Virus record (IMG/VR): IMGVR_UViG_2687453466_000005
Source: a virus
Lineage: Duplodnaviria > Heunggongvirae > Uroviricota > Caudoviricetes
Length of the DNA stretch: 14,169 bases
Reading direction: 5' to 3' (one strand)
Part shown: one piece after another, positions 7,569 to 13,241 of the stretch
Layout of the letters: every line of letters starts with the position of its first letter
Numbering within the stretch: position 1 is the stretch's first letter
The notes under the pieces: model-generated
Told to the model about the DNA's origin: nothing
The model's database searches: none
The model's input: only the letters and a program-made list of their open reading frames with translations
Position numbers and translations under genes: made by a program

Positions 7569-8936
7569 TTAAAGCGAGCGGATCCCGTAGGACTCAATGT
7601 GATCAGACAGCGTGTCTTCTTTCTCGTACAGCATGGCTCTGCCAACCGCCATAATCAGCGCAACTGCACCATCGATTTTGTTTTCCGCCTGCTCCTTGAC
7701 GGGCTTCACCACATCATCGTTACCCGGAATGGTTTTGCCGACCACGTTGCCGATACACCAGGTCATGATGGGATTGCCGTCATGATGAAAGCGCCCCGAT
7801 TCAATCGCCGCTTCCAGCTCTTTCATCGGATCGGACATGTTGGTGTAGTTCTGAATGATGGTGACGGGGTTCAGGTCTTCATCAGCAAGGTCATGTGACA
7901 GCCCGGTCGCCCCGAAGGGGTCGATGGGTGACTCACTGACCGGGCTGATTTTGTTCGCCGCTTTGGCCTCTTCGAGGATGTAGCGATAATCCACCTCCGC
8001 ACCATCGGTAACGGTCAGAACGCCCATTTCCACCCATTTCTGAAAGCGTTCGGCTGTCCGGCGATCTTCATTTTTCTCGACGCTGTACACCGTGTCATAC
8101 GGTACCCAGAAACGCGGGGCCACACTGTAGTAATGCGTTTTACCGTCAATCTCGCGGGTATAAAGTCGCGCCATGCTGTTCATATCCAGCTTACGCGCCA
8201 GGTCAAAGGCCAGAATGCACGGCTGCCCCTCGAACTGCTCAAGGGTCAGTGATTTATCCTCGCAGCTCTGCCAGCTCACCAGGTTGAAATACGCCGAACG
8301 CGCCGACGCCCAGATATTGAGGTGTTTTGTTTTAAAGACGTTTGCCAGACGGGCGTTATTTTTCGCACGCTGCTGCTGACTTAACAAAAATTCGCGATAA
8401 ACCGACACGCCAATATTTGGATTGGCTTTTTCCAGCACCTGCGGGTCGGTCCAGTCGTCACCTTCATCAACGGTATAGATGATCCCGAACAGTTCATCGT
8501 TTGGCACCGAGCCGTTGAGCATCTCGATGACTTCCCGCCGTTTGTCGTAGCACGGCCCCTCAATGTTGTACCCGGCGGTGGTAATGGCCCACATCAGTGG
8601 CTGGCGTCGCGCCCCCATCCCGGTAAGCATCGTGGTGTAAAGCGCATCTGTGGCGTGCTCGTGATATTCATCCACCACGGCACAGTGGGGTGATGAACCA
8701 TCACCCTGGCGACGCGCCTTACGCGTTAACCAGCCTTCTGCTTCCAGCCGTGCGATAGCCGTTCTGACGGTACTCATCCCCGCGCCAATCTGACGGGCAA
8801 TGGTTTCAATTGATGGCCAGCACACACCTTCGTCATTACTGAAATCAGCCAGGCGGGCCATAATTGCCACGCTGGATAACTTCATGCCTGATGCAGCGCA
8901 ACCATCCCATACATAGCCGGTTAATTTAGTGCTCAT
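7569..8936 (-). CDS. oweE: Chimeric ORF: replication-initiator-like winged-helix N-terminus (OweE) fused in frame to the C-terminal part of a terminase large subunit (AaaE)
   Basis: 455-aa ORF; the first ~80 aa ([34 protein letters not shown]...) look like a wHTH replication/regulatory domain; the remainder (...VVDEYHEH...WAITTAGYN...ILAFDLARK...[15 protein letters not shown]...) looks like terminase ATPase-C/nuclease regions; no intact terminase N-terminus. Confidence 0.7.
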
Positions 8937-8945
8937 GACCGACCT

Positions 8946-9284
8946 CTATTTCCCTGAATTTACGACGAAACTGTTCGAGCGGGCTGAAGCATTCATGCTC
9001 ATAACCTTCGCGGAGGTAGATAACCCGTTGTGTTTCCGGCTCCCAACGAATGACTCTGACGGGCACTCCGTAGTGATCTTTGAACCAGCGGTTAACTTGT
9101 CGCAAAGGACTGTCTCCTTCTGCCGGTTGAAATCACCCACAGCCCACTCTGCAAAGCTGTGGGTTACAATTTCCCTGTCACCTGGTACATTCACTGCATA
9201 GCAATATTCCACCTTCGCTTTTCCACCCGGTACAGGAAGCGCAATCAGTTGCGAGCGACGGTAGTGTGTTGTTAAACTGTTCAT
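8946..9284 (-). CDS. ymfM: YmfM, reported SOS-inducible cell-division inhibitor of e14
   Basis: 112-aa ATG-initiated ORF; start overlaps the ymfL stop (ATGA), indicating translational coupling. Confidence 0.7.
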
Positions 9285-9850
9285 GCGTTAGTTTCTCCAC
9301 AACCAGAAGCAATCGACGCCACGACGCCCGGAGCTGCACACTCGCGGGCGTCATTACTTTCTGAAATGCAAAAAATTTTGTAGACAAGTGCTGCATGCTC
9401 CTGCAGCTTCGAAATTGAGAGATACAGCTCGTCGTTAATTGCTGTCTTCTCATGCGGTTCCACTACACCGTCTTCGATTGCTGAACGAATCTGTTTTGAA
9501 TAACTGCCGATCTGTTCAATGACTTCCAGCAGACGCTGGTTAATATCGGCGTTGTCCACATCCTCGACGTCAGGAAGAGACACAAAGACGCCATTTGCAG
9601 ACTGCGCCACAGCATCAGCAATGAAGTGAGTGCCACCAGCACGCTGTAAAACCATTGCCCATCCCAGCGGGAAAATCTGATCGCCATCTGCACGAAGGCG
9701 GTTGAATAAAGCGTTTTCTGTTACATCGAGCCAGTCAGCCGCTTCAGCGTAACCACTCGGCAACGCCGCGATAGTTTTTCTGACAGCTTTCACGTACCAC
9801 TCAGGCTGTTTTTCTATTTTCCAGTGATGCTTACCCACGATTAGCCTCAT
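9281..9850 (-). CDS. ymfL: YmfL, phage CII-like regulatory protein
   Basis: 189-aa ATG-initiated ORF immediately downstream of croE in the early leftward operon. Confidence 0.7.
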
Positions 9851-9881
9851 CGTTCTGTGGTTAAAAATTGAAAGTGTTCTG

Positions 9882-10082
9882 CTAATCTTTCGGATAGATA
9901 TCCGGTCTTAAGTCAGATTTCGTAATTGCACCTGATGTGTATTGCTCAAGTTTTTTAGCCAGCACAAAACTGGCTTTTTTATAGCCATTGAAAACCAGCC
10001 GTAAGTAGCCAGGTGTTGAGCCAACTTTTCCGGCCAACTCGCCCTGCTGTTCTTTGGTTAAAGAGTCCCAATACGCTTTCAT
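9882..10082 (-). CDS. croE: Cro-like HTH repressor CroE
   Basis: 66-aa product MKAYWDSLTKEQQGELAGKVGSTPGYLRLVFNGYKKASFVLAKKL... from the internal ATG preceded by GGAGG about 10 nt upstream; divergent from cohE. Confidence 0.7.
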   Translation of the reverse strand: MKAYWDSLTKEQQGELAGKVGSTPGYLRLVFNGYKKASFVLAKKLEQYTSGAITKSDLRPDIYPKD

Positions 10083-10085
10083 ACA

Positions 10086-10157
10086 ATATGTACCTCCGGT
10101 GTACATATTACATGATTGAAATGAACCTTCAAGATACTTGTACCTTAACGGTACAAG
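10086..10157. promoter_or_regulatory. Divergent cohE/croE promoter-operator region with two GTAC-core palindromes
   Basis: ATATGTAC-N7-GTACATAT (about 10086-10108, overlapping the croE RBS) and CTTGTACC-TTAAC-GGTACAAG (about 10137-10157, 16 bp upstream of the cohE ATG); candidate -10 TTTAAT just upstream of the cohE start suggests a short or leaderless cohE mRNA. Confidence 0.45.
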
Positions 10158-10172
10158 GGTTTTAATTTCGTT

Positions 10173-10847
10173 ATGAAAACAATCCATGACATCCGGCGGT
10201 CTAACGCCAGAAAACTGAGAGATGGTGTTGGCGGGAATTCTTCCTTTGCCACTATGATTGATCGCGAGCCAACCCAGACCAGCAGGTTTATGGGAGATGG
10301 TGCTACTAAAAATATCGGTGACAGCATGGCACGACACATCGAAAAATGTTTCGACCTGCCTGTAGGATGGCTCGATCAAGAACACCAGACAACGAACATC
10401 ACAAAAAAACCTGATGTTTCAATCACTAATAAACAAATCACATTAGTCCCTGTCATATCATGGGTACAGGCCGGAGCATGGAAAGAAGTTGGATATTCTG
10501 AGGTTGATTTGAGCACAGCAGAAACGTATCCCTGCCCTGTACCCTGTGGGGAAATGACTTATATCTTGCGGGTAATAGGTGATTCAATGATTGATGAGTA
10601 CCGCCCGGGAGACATGATTTTTGTCGATCCTGAAGTACCTGCCTGCCACGGTGACGACGTTATTGCATTGATGCACGATACAGGTGAAACCACCTTCAAA
10701 AGGTTGATAGAAGATGGGACACAGCGTTATCTCAAAGCGTTAAACCCAAACTGGCCTGAGCCTTACATTAAGATCAACGGTAATTGCTCTATAATTGGTA
10801 CTGTGATTTTCTCAGGAAAACCAAGAAGATACAAAATCAAAGCCTAA
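10173..10847 (+). CDS. cohE: CI-like prophage repressor CohE (HTH N-terminus, LexA/S24 autopeptidase C-terminus)
   Basis: 224-aa ORF; contains a candidate Ala-Gly cleavage site (VQAGAW), the Ser nucleophile motif GDSM and the Lys motif FKRL typical of LexA/CI self-cleaving repressors. Confidence 0.85.
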   Translation: MKTIHDIRRSNARKLRDGVGGNSSFATMIDREPTQTSRFMGDGATKNIGDSMARHIEKCFDLPVGWLDQEHQTTNITKKPDVSITNKQITLVPVISWVQAGAWKEVGYSEVDLSTAETYPCPVPCGEMTYILRVIGDSMIDEYRPGDMIFVDPEVPACHGDDVIALMHDTGETTFKRLIEDGTQRYLKALNPNWPEPYIKINGNCSIIGTVIFSGKPRRYKIKA

Positions 10848-10861
10848 TCAATGTTTATGAA

Positions 10862-10882
10862 CCTGCTTCGGCAGGTTTTTTT
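10862..10882 (+). terminator. Rho-independent terminator after cohE
   Basis: CCTGC-TTCG-GCAGG hairpin followed by a run of seven T, 15 nt after the cohE stop. Confidence 0.7.
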
Positions 10883-10886
10883 ATAC

Positions 10887-10915
10887 TTGACAATGTACCT
10901 TTGAGATACATAATG
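10887..10915 (+). promoter_or_regulatory. Candidate sigma70 promoter for ymfJ, carrying two direct ATGTACC motifs
   Basis: TTGACA at 10887-10892, CATAAT/ATAATG about 16-17 bp downstream; the spacer and -10 contain ATGTACC twice, the same core as the cohE/croE palindromes. Confidence 0.45.
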
Positions 10916-11021
10916 TACCCAAGAGAAACAACAAACAGGCAGGACGCCCACGAAGTAGCCCGCCCGGTACGTACGAAGACCGGGATGATTCGTTAGCGGA
11001 TGATTTCAGTGGAGAGAATAG

Positions 11022-11330
11022 ATGAATGAGCAGAATTTGAAGCATGTGATCGCATTGTTGCTGGAAGACGCTAAACGTTTGCAGCAGATAGAGCCAAATG
11101 CAGGCACTGAGGCCCGCATTTTGTTAGCAAAACAGGCATTAAAGACTTGCGGGGCGCAAGCCCCTGGTCGAACCGAGTTCATGAATTTCATGGCTAACAC
11201 ACTCACCCCTCTGCCATGCAATGGAGAGAAGGTGAGCCGTGTTTATCACGACACAATGGTTAAGGCTTTAAGAATCGAGCTTGATGGGCTTAGGCGTAAG
11301 ATCGTAATGAACGAAATCGTTACCAACTAA
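11022..11330 (+). CDS. ymfJ: Uncharacterised protein YmfJ
   Basis: 102-aa ATG-initiated ORF with GGAGAG RBS; its 3' end overlaps the 3' end of convergent ymfI by about 63 nt. Confidence 0.7.
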   Translation: MNEQNLKHVIALLLEDAKRLQQIEPNAGTEARILLAKQALKTCGAQAPGRTEFMNFMANTLTPLPCNGEKVSRVYHDTMVKALRIELDGLRRKIVMNEIVTN

Positions 11331-11609
11331 GGAAGCAGACGGAAGTAAGCATGCGCTTTGTTCAAATTTACAGACAAATATATTTGCGTCAACACCGGCA
11401 CTGTTAGCAATTGAAAATGTTTGATCAAGGATTTGTTGGCAGTTCATTGTACTTTTGAGGATATATCCCTCTGGAATCAGTCTGCAGCAGCTATCGTCAG
11501 ACTCTTTAACTGTTTTCTGGTACAGAAAGTTAAGCATTAATTCTTCAAATTTTTTGGTCTGTTCGGCTGTGTCTTCAAATAGACGAACGTGAACATAAAA
11601 CTGGTTCAT
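11268..11609 (-). CDS. ymfI: Uncharacterised protein YmfI
   Basis: 113-aa product from the internal ATG (MNQFYVHVRLFED...) preceded by AAGGAAA about 7 nt upstream; the track ORF extends 15 codons further 5'. Confidence 0.65.
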   Translation of the reverse strand: MNQFYVHVRLFEDTAEQTKKFEELMLNFLYQKTVKESDDSCCRLIPEGYILKSTMNCQQILDQTFSIANSAGVDANIFVCKFEQSACLLPSASLVGNDFVHYDLTPKPIKLDS

Positions 11610-11865
11610 TAAGTTTCCTTGCTTGCTGGCTGTGTGAGAACTCCAGCATACCACCGAGCCTGAAGTGGTGAAAAGACAGGCACATAACAGCTAAGTATTT
11701 TCAACCAGAGAGAATCCTTAGCGTTGTGGTGAATGCGGCTCAGCGCACGCGGGTTAAGGTTGAGGCTGACAATCGACCTTCTGTGGATACCCACCCGCCT
11801 GGTGTGCAACCTTCGCCAGGCACCGGGGGCACCCGACACCACAACTTTATGCTGTGTGTAGTCTT

Positions 11866-12000
11866 GGCGGTACCAGTTTTTTCCTTAGTCCTTTCTGGTA
11901 CCGCCCTTTTTACAAAACAGAGAAGAGTATCCCCGGATGACGGGTTAATAACCCGACCCATCCTGATAGCTGTGGCCACAGGTGCTCTTCTCTGTTTTGT
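11866..12000. repeat. Cluster of perfect inverted repeats in the ymfI/xisE divergent intergenic region (structured RNA or protein-binding element of unknown function)
   Basis: GGCGGTACCAG-N18-CTGGTACCGCC (11866-11905) followed by CTTTTT; ACAAAACAGAGAAGAG-N57-CTCTTCTCTGTTTTGT (11912-12000) enclosing palindromes CGGGTTAaTAACCCG (11941-11955) and CTGTGGCCACAG (11970-11981). Confidence 0.6.
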
Positions 12001-12073
12001 GGAGAAACTAACCGACCGTGCAGGGTCGATATGCTGAGACTAAGCAGTTAGTGTAGTAATAAGGTGATCGCAT

Positions 12074-12319
12074 ATGCTTCAAATGTTAACTCTTGAAGAA
12101 TGGGCTGCTGAAAAATACAGAAGTAATCCTCCAAGTGTGTCCACATTGCGTCGTTATGCTAAGCAGAATTTATTTTGTCCACCGGCCATGAAACAAGGCC
12201 GGTTATGGCGAGTGCGTGAGGACGCCGAGTTAGTTGGGGAGTTGGTAACACCTGTAATCAAGAAAAATGACTCATTACTTTTGCAACGGATTTTGAGTAA
12301 TGGCAGCCAGACCGCGTAA
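12074..12319 (+). CDS. xisE: Excisionase XisE (small HTH DNA-binding protein)
   Basis: 81-aa ORF with AAGGTGA RBS; overlaps the intE start by 20 nt. Confidence 0.75.
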   Translation: MLQMLTLEEWAAEKYRSNPPSVSTLRRYAKQNLFCPPAMKQGRLWRVREDAELVGELVTPVIKKNDSLLLQRILSNGSQTA

Positions 12320-13241
12320 GAATAATGTTTCAGTCCCTAACTTATATCCGCTTTATAGTAGGAAGGTAAATAAAGTCTATTGGCGGTATAAGCATCCAGT
12401 GACAGGAAAATTCCATGCTTTGGGAACAAACGAAGCTGAAGCTATCGCTATTGCCACTGAGGCCAACACTCGCCTGGCTGAACAAAGAACCCGGCAGATT
12501 CTGGCTATCAGTGACAGGATCGCAACCAGCAAAGGAAAGGCTATCACAACGTCAACCTGGTTAGATCGCTATCAAGCGATCCAGGATGACAGGCTTAAAA
12601 GTGGTGATATAAGACTCAACACCTATAAACAAAAAGCTAAACCAGTATCCTTGCTCAGAGAACGAGCAGGAATGAAGTTGATCTCAGCCGTTGATGTCAG
12701 AGATATAGCACAATTGCTTGATGAGTATATCGCCGCTGGGCGGCCAAGAATGGCACAAGTAGTTCGCTCCGTCCTGATTGATGTTTTCAAAGAGGCGCAG
12801 CACTACGGAGAAGTACCTCCTGGCTATAACCCAGCATTAGCCACTAAACAACCAAGAAGAAAAATTACCCGACAACGGCTGAGCCTTGAAGAATGGAAAA
12901 AAATCTTCGATATCGCAGACGCTACTCATCGTTACATGGGAAATGCCATGCTGTTAGCGCTGGTTACTGGTCAGCGGTTAGGTGATATTTCGCGTATGAA
13001 ATTTAGCGATATTTGGGATGATCATCTTCATGTCATTCAGGAAAAGACCGGGAGCAAAATCGCAATTCCTCTTTCTCTTCGCCTCAATGCGATTAACTGG
13101 AGTTTACGCGATGTAGTAGCCCGCTGCCGTGACTATGCAGTCAGTGCATACTTAGTGCATTTTTTTCGTTCAACTTCACAAGCAGAGCGCGGAGCGCAGG
13201 TTAAAGCCAATACATTGACGATGAATTTTGATAAAAACTAA
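12300..13241 (+). CDS. intE: Lambda-family tyrosine integrase IntE, apparently C-terminally truncated (313 aa; ends before the box II HxxR / His / Tyr catalytic motifs)
   Basis: N-terminal and core-binding regions plus the box I Arg (LVTGQRLGD) and the Lys (QEKTGSKIAIP) are present, but the ORF stops 64 aa after that Lys; all three forward frames have stops within about 55 nt downstream. Confidence 0.75.
   Translation: MAARPRKNNVSVPNLYPLYSRKVNKVYWRYKHPVTGKFHALGTNEAEAIAIATEANTRLAEQRTRQILAISDRIATSKGKAITTSTWLDRYQAIQDDRLKSGDIRLNTYKQKAKPVSLLRERAGMKLISAVDVRDIAQLLDEYIAAGRPRMAQVVRSVLIDVFKEAQHYGEVPPGYNPALATKQPRRKITRQRLSLEEWKKIFDIADATHRYMGNAMLLALVTGQRLGDISRMKFSDIWDDHLHVIQEKTGSKIAIPLSLRLNAINWSLRDVVARCRDYAVSAYLVHFFRSTSQAERGAQVKANTLTMNFDKN

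Follow-up and report, generated by a model that had tools for sequence, protein, structure and literature searches.

The 14,169-bp stretch of DNA analyzed here (the window) is the e14 prophage of Escherichia coli K-12, in the orientation opposite to that of MG1655, and the element in question is a cluster of inverted repeats located upstream of xisE and intE. We consider it probable that this cluster is the downstream half of a non-coding, structured early-left leader, in which a DicF-like terminator is followed by a three-way-junction RNA domain, the Y domain, that would be processed by RNase III. This reading is carried by the repeats themselves, the strand on which they fold, RNA 3′ ends mapped in vivo, the covariation of three structures, the position of the cluster in its operon and its similarity to DicF. 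A stretch of the best-studied bacterial genome that carries the annotation of a protein gene, ymfH, appears to be a composite non-coding RNA locus, with a predicted, unannotated small RNA of the DicF/STnc100 type, for which published Term-seq data already show the 3′ end. It provides a model of how a lambdoid prophage without an N-type system could keep xis and int silent yet inducible, by means of a leader terminator and a processing module, and the Y domain spans prophages that include Shigella serotype-converting phages, Salmonella ST64B and Stx2c phages. An earlier reading of this DNA from its letters alone (the sequence-only reading) had noticed the repeats but missed the relationship to DicF and STnc100, the pL-leader context and the three-way junction closed by the longest repeat.

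All of the repeats listed in that reading are present: an 11-bp perfect inverted repeat (11866–11876 and 11895–11905, hereafter hairpin 1) with an 18-nucleotide (nt) loop, followed by CTTTTT (11906–11911); a 16-bp perfect inverted repeat (11912–11927 and 11985–12000), the arms of which are 57 nt apart; the inner strings CGGGTTAATAACCCG (11941–11955) and CTGTGGCCACAG (11970–11981); and CGACC-N6-GGTCG (12013–12028). With loops of up to 100 nt, the 16-bp and 11-bp repeats, which adjoin each other, are the two longest perfect inverted repeats of the whole window. Of 100 shuffled versions of the window with dinucleotide composition preserved, 1 had an arm of 16 bp or more and 29 had an arm of 11 bp or more. 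The earlier view that the repeats are selected rather than due to chance therefore holds for the 16-bp repeat, which is unusual alone, and not for the 11-bp repeat as far as length is concerned; the latter is validated instead by conservation and transcript data. Folding of both strands of the region (11690–12040) yielded a z-score of −6.45 on the plus strand and of −4.73 on the minus strand.

The region from 11600 to 12080 is 100% identical to K-12 strains, in which ymfI, ymfH and xisE are annotated there (the MG1655 position is 1213106 minus the window position). The plus strand carries, in order, the repressor gene cohE (10173–10847), the cohE terminator (10860–10882), which directly precedes the pL-type promoter of the early-left operon (10887–10914; TTGACA, a 16-nt spacer and CATAAT), then ymfJ, the structured leader, xisE and intE, with ymfI antisense to ymfJ. 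This promoter is flanked and overlapped by GTACC/GGTAC operator half-sites, as observed in the cohE/croE intergenic region. Phage SfV has a promoter identical to e14 pL at the same place (11 of 12 consensus positions), and in the related loci L001, L004 (ST64B), L005 and L008 (phiNP) the repressor terminator is followed by equivalent promoter-plus-operator units. Of 5426 complete E. coli genomes, 2160 contain DNA homologous to the region, at a median of one and a maximum of four places per genome, and so do 61 phage records, including SfV, SfII, SfIV, ST64B, cdtI, mEp460 and Stx2c-converting phages. At every annotated locus inspected (SfV, ST64B, cdtI, phiNP, sal3, phiES15 and E. coli prophages), the homologue occupies the same strand and is located between the gene for a CI/LexA-like repressor and the first early-left gene; an unannotated Klebsiella phage record has the same layout, judged by sequence alone. 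The intergenic regions of the relatives consist of a repressor terminator, a promoter with immunity-specific operators, and then a long untranslated stretch of interchangeable modules. Because the homologues follow a repressor terminator and a promoter with operators, the repeat cluster is the downstream (3′) part of a long pL leader rather than a free-standing intergenic element. Expression of ymfH, xisE and intE is strongly induced by DNA damage in a LexA-dependent manner (Sass et al. 2024). Since all three are induced by the SOS response, transcription passes hairpin 1, located 163 nt upstream of xisE (start codon at 12074), once pL is derepressed.

This distribution bears on the idea of a dispersed repeat or mobile element, of the repetitive extragenic palindromic (REP), enterobacterial repetitive intergenic consensus (ERIC) or miniature inverted-repeat transposable element (MITE) kind, or else of a chance assemblage. 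Long terminal inverted repeats around approximately 60 bp are what such an element would display, but we give this idea virtually no credence given that the places counted above, so few per genome, all share the same prophage context, and, as far as chance is concerned, that shuffles rarely reach 16 bp and that covariation is present.

Hairpin 1 with the C and U5 that follow it (11866–11911, plus strand) is well supported as an intrinsic terminator of the DicF type acting as terminator or attenuator. Its 11-bp stem contains seven G-C pairs, and its loop of 18 nt is longer than typical. Supplementary file 1 of Adams et al. 2021, a Term-seq data set for MG1655, lists three 3′ ends on the strand of the leader, which go undiscussed in that paper. 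The first, 1201195(−), corresponds to window position 11911, the last U after hairpin 1, and the flanking sequence given in the Term-seq table, GTCTTGGCGGTACCAG...CCGCCCTTTTT, fixes this position beyond doubt. The second, 1201257(−), corresponds to 11849, 4 nt past the closing helix of a STnc100-like domain described below, and the third, 1201423(−), to 11683. An in vivo end exactly on the U-tract is compatible with termination or trimming, and bears out for hairpin 1 the earlier suggestion of a terminator or attenuator controlling xisE-intE. At the site of hairpin 1, about 60 of 66 non-redundant relatives carry a GC-rich hairpin with a U4–U8 tract (mostly U5–U8). At least ten different stems are found among them, all complementary, including GGCGGUACC, GCGGCAUC, GCGGCGUC, GUCGGCGUC, UGCCCAUC, GGCGGUUAUCC, GGCGGUGAUCGG and others.

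The resemblance of hairpin 1 to an operator deserves consideration here. The sequence-only reading had proposed that the repeats might be DNA operators for dimeric regulators (CohE, CroE, XisE), given that they form perfect palindromes in e14 and that each arm of hairpin 1 contains GGTACC, which is reminiscent of the GTAC operator core. We find this very improbable. The true CohE-type operators, GTACC-N5-GGTAC, lie elsewhere, at pR/pRM (10090–10155) and at pL (10893–10925), and the GGTACC copies of hairpin 1 are 29 bp apart, with a spacing of 24 nt instead of N5. Moreover, hairpin 1 keeps GGCGGUACC in L001, L004 and L008, of which the operators and repressors are quite different. The stems of the cluster change sequence with pairing kept, G·U pairs included, the inner palindromes are not palindromic in relatives, and an RNA 3′ end falls on the U-tract.

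The two 3′ ends at 11849 and 11911 point to a putative 62-nt DicF-like small RNA (11850–11911, plus strand), which would consist of a single-stranded 5′ part, UGCUGUGUGUAGUCUU, followed by hairpin 1 and a U-tail. The single-stranded 5′ part is conserved as GCUGUGUGUAGUCUU across many of the hairpin-1 stem variants, as might be expected of a seed region or a processing signal; elsewhere in the window, its complement (AAGACTACACACAGC) has only a 3-mismatch site, compatible with chance. A search of the window with Rfam models returned nothing at gathering thresholds, including for DicF (RF00039) and STnc100 (RF02076). At permissive thresholds, the plus strand yielded full-length matches to DicF at 11853–11906 (28.5 bits, below the gathering score of 48; expectation value (E) of 3.7e-4 in a 601-nt search) and to STnc100 at 11693–11914 (29.2 bits, below the gathering score of 47; E of 1.8e-4), so that the covariance-model check proposed with the sequence-only reading gave sub-threshold relationships and no assignment at gathering score. 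The STnc100 model reaches 35–41 bits in SfV, ST64B, sal3 and phiES15, likewise below its gathering score. Upstream of hairpin 1 and on the same transcript is the corresponding STnc100-like closed RNA domain (11723–11845, plus strand), GUUGUGGUG...CACCACAAC, with a 9-bp perfect closing repeat. Hairpin 1 and its predicted RNA appear to be an unannotated member of the DicF/STnc100 kind. The sole annotated small RNA of e14, C0293/co293, is located at the icd end of the prophage, away from the leader, and our literature search found no paper connecting ymfH with a small RNA.

The 11683 end, an abundant “orphan” Term-seq end just upstream of the STnc100-like domain, comes after a conserved hairpin, CCACCGAGCCUGAAGUGG, also found in SfV, phiES15 and Enterobacter or Kosakonia prophages, and probably reflects processing. 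In two Phytobacter ursingii prophages, L136 (2210–2288, minus strand) and L170 (1186–1264, plus strand), the leader contains a complete tRNA gene, assigned to tRNA-Ile by ARAGORN and bearing the unusual anticodon AAU, directly upstream of the DicF-like hairpin, in the place of the STnc100-like domain. T-arm-like strings (GGTTCGATTCC) are also present in the L006, L008 and L009 leaders, which yield no tRNA gene call.

The 16-bp repeat closes the Y domain (11907–12005, plus strand), a three-way-junction RNA that we delineated in an alignment of 66 sequences. Relatives were gathered by BLAST, by a motif scan of IMG/VR and by a one-genome-per-species scan anchored on the 3′ arm only, 39 of the 47 matches of which were true copies. 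The IMG/VR set was selected with the motif of the inner hairpin A, and loop conservation was re-measured on the 3′-arm-anchored set and the BLAST matches. The Y domain is present in at least 19 enterobacterial genera: Escherichia, Shigella, Citrobacter, Enterobacter, Phytobacter, Mixta, Kosakonia, Atlantibacter, Superficieibacter, Trabulsiella, Buttiauxella, Mangrovibacter, Leclercia, Pseudescherichia, Raoultella, Pseudocitrobacter, Erwinia, Klebsiella and Izhakiella. Its closing helix, P1, extends beyond the 16-bp core inward (11928–11931 with 11981–11984) and outward (U-tract 11907–11911 with GGAGA at 12001–12005), and RNAalifold independently predicts both extensions, CAUC with GGUG on the inner side and the U-tract with the invariant GGAGA on the outer side. 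P1 thereby comprises about 25 bp (16 perfect, 4 inward and 4–5 outward), and its length is invariant, as none of the 66 sequences has an insertion or a deletion in it. The U-tract of hairpin 1 directly abuts the 5′ arm of P1 in 58 of the 63 sequences that have a U-tract.

Across the 66 non-redundant sequences, the 16 repeat pairs of P1 are 93% paired, and six of them have changed on both sides, as exemplified by column pairs 17-126 (GC 35, CG 31), 12-131 (CG 51, AU 10) and 23-120 (AU 49, GC 15). For the whole Y structure, the values observed for four of five measures were reached by none of 500 column shuffles, and 24 of the 500 attained that of the fifth, further pair types. With the register slid, controls were 37–55% paired versus 86% for the named structure. 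Related prophages thus display the compensatory changes that a selected RNA stem would be expected to show. The alignment also contains 31 G·U cells; read on the opposite strand, these would be C·A, and the Y domain therefore acts as a plus-strand RNA rather than as a DNA cruciform or a minus-strand transcript. Plus-strand folding, covariation and these plus-strand-only G·U pairs together vindicate the earlier suggestion of a structured RNA. The two inner strings, which had been taken for palindromes, are the e14 forms of two hairpins enclosed by P1, which in relatives have a 7-nt loop or a variable sequence. The outer stem of hairpin A (11933–11965, plus strand) covaries (pair 34-58, GC 43, AU 15). 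Hairpin B (11970–11981, plus strand) varies in sequence and length among relatives, with insertions of up to about 40 nt, and keeps basal pairs that covary (pair 66-101, GC 48, AU 10). A search of Rfam with the SfV Y domain, at E up to 10, returned chance matches to microRNA and hairpin-ribozyme families only, and neither tRNA nor STnc100. The Y domain is a previously undescribed conserved RNA structure with no Rfam family.

P1 is followed by a conserved single-stranded GGAGAAAC (12001–12008, plus strand), nearly invariant in the 66 sequences and kept also in those without a U-tract, and then by a small GC hairpin, CGACC/GGUCG with a UGCA-type loop (12013–12028, plus strand), 45 nt before the xisE start codon. 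A small hairpin of at least 4 bp is found in 58 of the 66 relatives, typically with a 6-bp stem and a UGCA or GGCA tetraloop, and its stems covary (GGCGGU/GCCGCC, CGACCU/GGGUCG, GCCCC/GGGGC). It is followed by the Shine-Dalgarno sequence and start codon of whichever gene comes first. A short frame runs through this part of the leader (11999–12037), starting at the end of P1 from GUG (GUG GAG AAA...), or from AUG in many relatives; its length ranges from 3 to more than 16 codons across phages, and in some of them its UGA overlaps the AUG of the first gene. As a candidate leader peptide it was rejected: it has no Shine-Dalgarno sequence, encodes no conserved peptide, starts with ACG in Klebsiella and is probably not translated.

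The same comparisons speak to the annotation of the region as a gene encoding the YmfH protein (103 amino acids, 11726–12037), in which the repeats would be incidental. RefSeq annotates ymfH and the open reading frame (ORF) is open in K-12, yet we consider a protein-coding role highly unlikely, in agreement with the sequence-only reading, which had doubted all of the overlapping ORFs, including the one annotated as ymfH. No equivalent ORF is conserved in SfV, ST64B, sal3, cdtI, phiNP or Kp4866-6; the corresponding place has either no ORF or ORFs of another frame and extent, and in L002, a close relative, the homologue is annotated as frameshifted. Substitutions preserve base pairs and not the reading frame, and two RNA 3′ ends lie inside the ORF.

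In the mechanism that we propose, leader transcripts are cut just after the STnc100-like domain (3′ end at 11849) and mostly stop at the U-tract (11911); cut and stop together would release the DicF-like RNA of about 62 nt. By acting as an attenuator, hairpin 1 would keep xis and int low in the lysogen. Upon inactivation of the LexA-like repressor CohE, flux from pL would increase and a read-through fraction would continue downstream. On this read-through RNA, the U-tract and the next 20 nt would pair with 11981–12005, and the resulting helix of about 25 bp would close the Y domain and sequester the U-tail of the terminator. RNase III may then cleave this helix, which would serve as a processing and insulation site splitting the small-RNA half from the xisE-intE message. 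The latter would begin with the GGAGAAAC linker and the small GC hairpin, a putative 5′ stabilizer beside the ribosome-binding site. The function of the Y domain would most likely be RNase III processing or mRNA stabilization; with its ~25 bp, P1 offers the double-stranded RNA of about two helical turns of an RNase III site.

Several observations weigh against this mechanism. The perfection of P1 is specific to e14 and SfV-type copies, and 52 of the 66 relatives have an internal mismatch at column 19-124; the long perfect arms emphasized in the sequence-only reading are present in e14, but their perfection is not conserved. We found no entry for the leader locus in the RNase III site data examined, and no cleavage data. 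The near-invariant interior of the Y domain, GACGGGCUCAUAACCCAAUCC, and the invariant GGAGAAAC are not needed by an RNase III site, and the RNase III model leaves the invariant interior unaccounted for. In L082 and L140, the Y domain lies directly downstream of pL with no terminator before it, starting in L140 about 20 nt after the predicted pL transcription start, which means that release of a small RNA is not its general role and that the Y domain is an independent module. With its 18-nt loop and only five U, hairpin 1 is of uncertain efficiency, and a simple terminator scan did not list it, owing to the loop limit of the scan.

In view of these weaknesses, we also consider that the Y domain, with or without the small hairpin, might be a cis-acting element of processive antitermination, similar in function to putL of phage HK022, whose RNA modifies RNA polymerase by itself, or to nut sites, which work through RNA and factors. 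RNA polymerase would then read through downstream terminators, and hairpin 1 would feed only the small-RNA branch. This alternative is plausible but unlikely. The Y domain occupies the position of putL/nutL: it is the conserved element met first downstream of pL, ahead of whichever gene leads the operon (xisE, yfdP-like, rdgC-like and others), as L140 also illustrates. Its two stem-loops, invariant unpaired nucleotides and rigid geometry are as expected of an RNA that binds polymerase or a factor, and HK022 shows that RNA-only antitermination exists in lambdoid phages. However, the Y domain resembles neither putL nor putR of HK022, as taken from the genome, in sequence or structure, and has no boxA-like single-stranded element. 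The strongest leader terminator of e14 and most relatives is upstream of the Y domain, hence beyond its reach, and a simple scan of the SfV early-left operon revealed no strong intrinsic terminator within it. A boxA reading of UGCUCUU was discarded: this string lies inside P1 and covaries.

Another leader element, ACAGGCAGGACGCCCACGAAGUAGCC...CCGGGAUGAUUCG, lies close to pL (10935–11000), in the position of HK022 putL, with which it shares common short strings only (CGAACRG, GGAUGA). It is kept in ST64B (L004, ~2665–2735) and phiNP (L008, ~2350–2420) and absent from cdtI-type and L001-type leaders. Since several relatives lack it, this element is not a general partner of hairpin 1.

The invariant interior of the Y domain lends itself to a further alternative. 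GACGGGCUCAUAACCCAAUCC, the stretch that is most conserved in the family, includes CGGGCUCAUAACCC, a 14-nt identity between the family consensus and the anticodon stem-loop of the E. coli initiator tRNA metZ that spans three G-C pairs and the loop CUCAUAA; over CG-CGGGCUCAUAACCC, 16 of 17 positions are identical to metZ. The tip of hairpin A reads GGG-CUCAUAA-CCC in most relatives versus CGGG-UUAAUAA-CCCG in e14, which keeps CGGG...CCCGA and matches metZ at 14 of 16 positions. Among 34 representatives of the sample that was not selected on the motif, the loop is CUCAUAA in 20, CUCAUUC in 8, UUCAUAA in 2, CUCAUUA in 1, CCCAUCA in 1 and UUAAUAA, the e14 type, in 2; the CAU triplet is therefore kept in 32 of 34, and the e14 type alone lacks it. 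GGG/CCC is invariant in 66 of 66 sequences. As it never varies, pairing there is unproven by covariation, and sequence-specific selection is evident. An e14-like phage from IMG/VR (L041, 3408–3547) combines the K-12-type xisE-proximal sequence with the consensus CUCAUAA loop, which makes UUAAUAA of K-12 e14 a derived state and possibly a decay in a defective prophage.

From these observations, one could envision the Y domain as a functional mimic of the anticodon arm of the initiator tRNA. It would act either in cis on translation initiation of the operon (at the 30S P site or through initiation factor 3) or, after excision, as a stable RNA, a decoy or sensor for factors that recognize the anticodon loop of tRNA-fMet (VapC-type nucleases, methionyl-tRNA synthetase). 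We hold such mimicry to be improbable. The metZ identity, the retention of CAU and the invariance of GGG/CCC argue for it, as does the fact that stable processed RNAs typically have a long closing helix. Conversely, the e14 loop has no CAU, the very invariance of GGG/CCC leaves its pairing unproven, Rfam tRNA and tRNA-like models have no match to the Y domain at E up to 10, and ARAGORN was negative on the window, SfV, ST64B, phiNP and Kp4866-6. The similarity may also reflect descent from a captured tRNA fragment devoid of tRNA-like function. If true, the mimic would represent a new class of phage RNA, the first conserved early-left element in many enterobacterial temperate phages, and the e14 copy would be its decayed version. 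As it stands, the resemblance to the tRNA loop would seem an unexplained, potentially important feature rather than demonstrated mimicry.

Other features of the window and its relatives were noted in passing. Compared to MG1655, the window lacks approximately 236 bp between lit and intE (MG1655 1199636–1199870), with a junction at 13229–13235 that has a 7-bp overlap. This removes the 3′ end of intE, which encodes 313 amino acids in the window versus 375 in MG1655; two point differences are found within 7106–13235. On the pR side, relatives carry C4 antisense RNA and isrK, both above the Rfam gathering score, beside antirepressor-type genes (L003, 187–375; L004, 409–597; L005, 415–603; L006, 48–124), and the e14 window has no such matches. 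A very abundant Term-seq 3′ end at window position ~9355 (plus strand), or MG1655 1203751(−), is antisense to ymfL and probably corresponds to the reported antisense small RNA ECS003, which overlaps ymfL/ymfM.

The resemblance of the Y domain to the initiator tRNA-fMet (metZ/W/V) is confined to the tip of the arm: the lower stem is replaced by an internal loop, and the Y domain has no D arm, T arm or acceptor features. With HK022 putL/putR, it has in common a position just downstream of pL, two stem-loops and the lack of an obvious dedicated operon protein, but the put sites have no long closing helix, and comparison by eye and by folding of put with the Y domain and with the 10935–11000 element revealed short shared strings only. 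The nearest functional analogues of the Y domain may be the lambda RNase III hairpins, or put or nut sites. The N-leader site and the sib retroregulator of int in lambda are RNase III hairpins of phage leaders. There, as in e14, a long near-perfect helix stands between pL-proximal signals and the ribosome-binding site of the first gene, likewise upstream of genes whose dosage differs between lysogeny and induction. The lambda hairpins and the e14 element are not related in sequence; the latter has a three-way junction and an invariant interior, and is a candidate for such cleavage.

STnc100 aligns end to end with 11693–11914, sharing GGUGAAU...CACCGGG-GGCACCCG-CACCA and the terminator, and has no match to the Y domain itself. 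STnc100/PasD small RNAs (Zhu, Shabalina and Storz 2026, preprint) are borne by prophages and embedded in a long phage operon, as in e14; their described location is the late region, close to Q, stx and an esterase gene, whereas the e14 domain is in the early-left leader.

Another close counterpart is DicF of the Qin prophage. A global alignment of 11850–11911 with DicF and its tail shows identity at 47 of 55 aligned positions, and DicF occupies the same prophage place: its operon, dicBF, is the early-left one and lies downstream of dicA, which encodes the repressor. Both share the same architecture: a single-stranded 5′ part, a GGCGGUAYCAGUUUU...CCGCC hairpin and CUUUUU, with a closed structured domain upstream and, from the U-tract onward, a long helix downstream. 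They differ in the 5′ part (UUUCUGGUGACGUUU in DicF versus UGCUGUGUGUAGUCUU in e14), in the loop, and by GGTATC in DicF where hairpin 1 has GGTACC. DicF is complementary to the ribosome-binding region of ftsZ, and the e14 RNA was rejected as a candidate ftsZ antisense RNA, its complementarity being no better than that of shuffled sequence: the duplex with the ftsZ initiation region reaches −27.8 kcal/mol versus a shuffle mean of −33.5, 93% of shuffles being equal or better, whereas DicF itself stands out in the same test at −38.5 kcal/mol. Two further closed domains were seen in Qin: an unannotated STnc100-like domain in the dicF-dicB gap (L010, 2433–2642; 34.4 bits, below the gathering score), which lies inside the long helix, and one of the cdtI type that precedes dicF. 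RNase III processes the dicBF operon of Qin; in the biogenesis of DicF, it generates the 5′ end of a 190-nt species, RNase E generates the 5′ end of the 53-nt form and a terminator provides the 3′ end (Ragunathan et al. 2023). The e14 ends at 11683, 11849 and 11911 parallel this release of DicF by processing and termination. A long helix predicted immediately downstream of the DicF U-tract (~25 bp in the fold) ends at the ribosome-binding site of dicB, a layout that, by analogy, supports the model in which the P1 helix of the Y domain separates a DicF-like RNA from the xisE-intE message.

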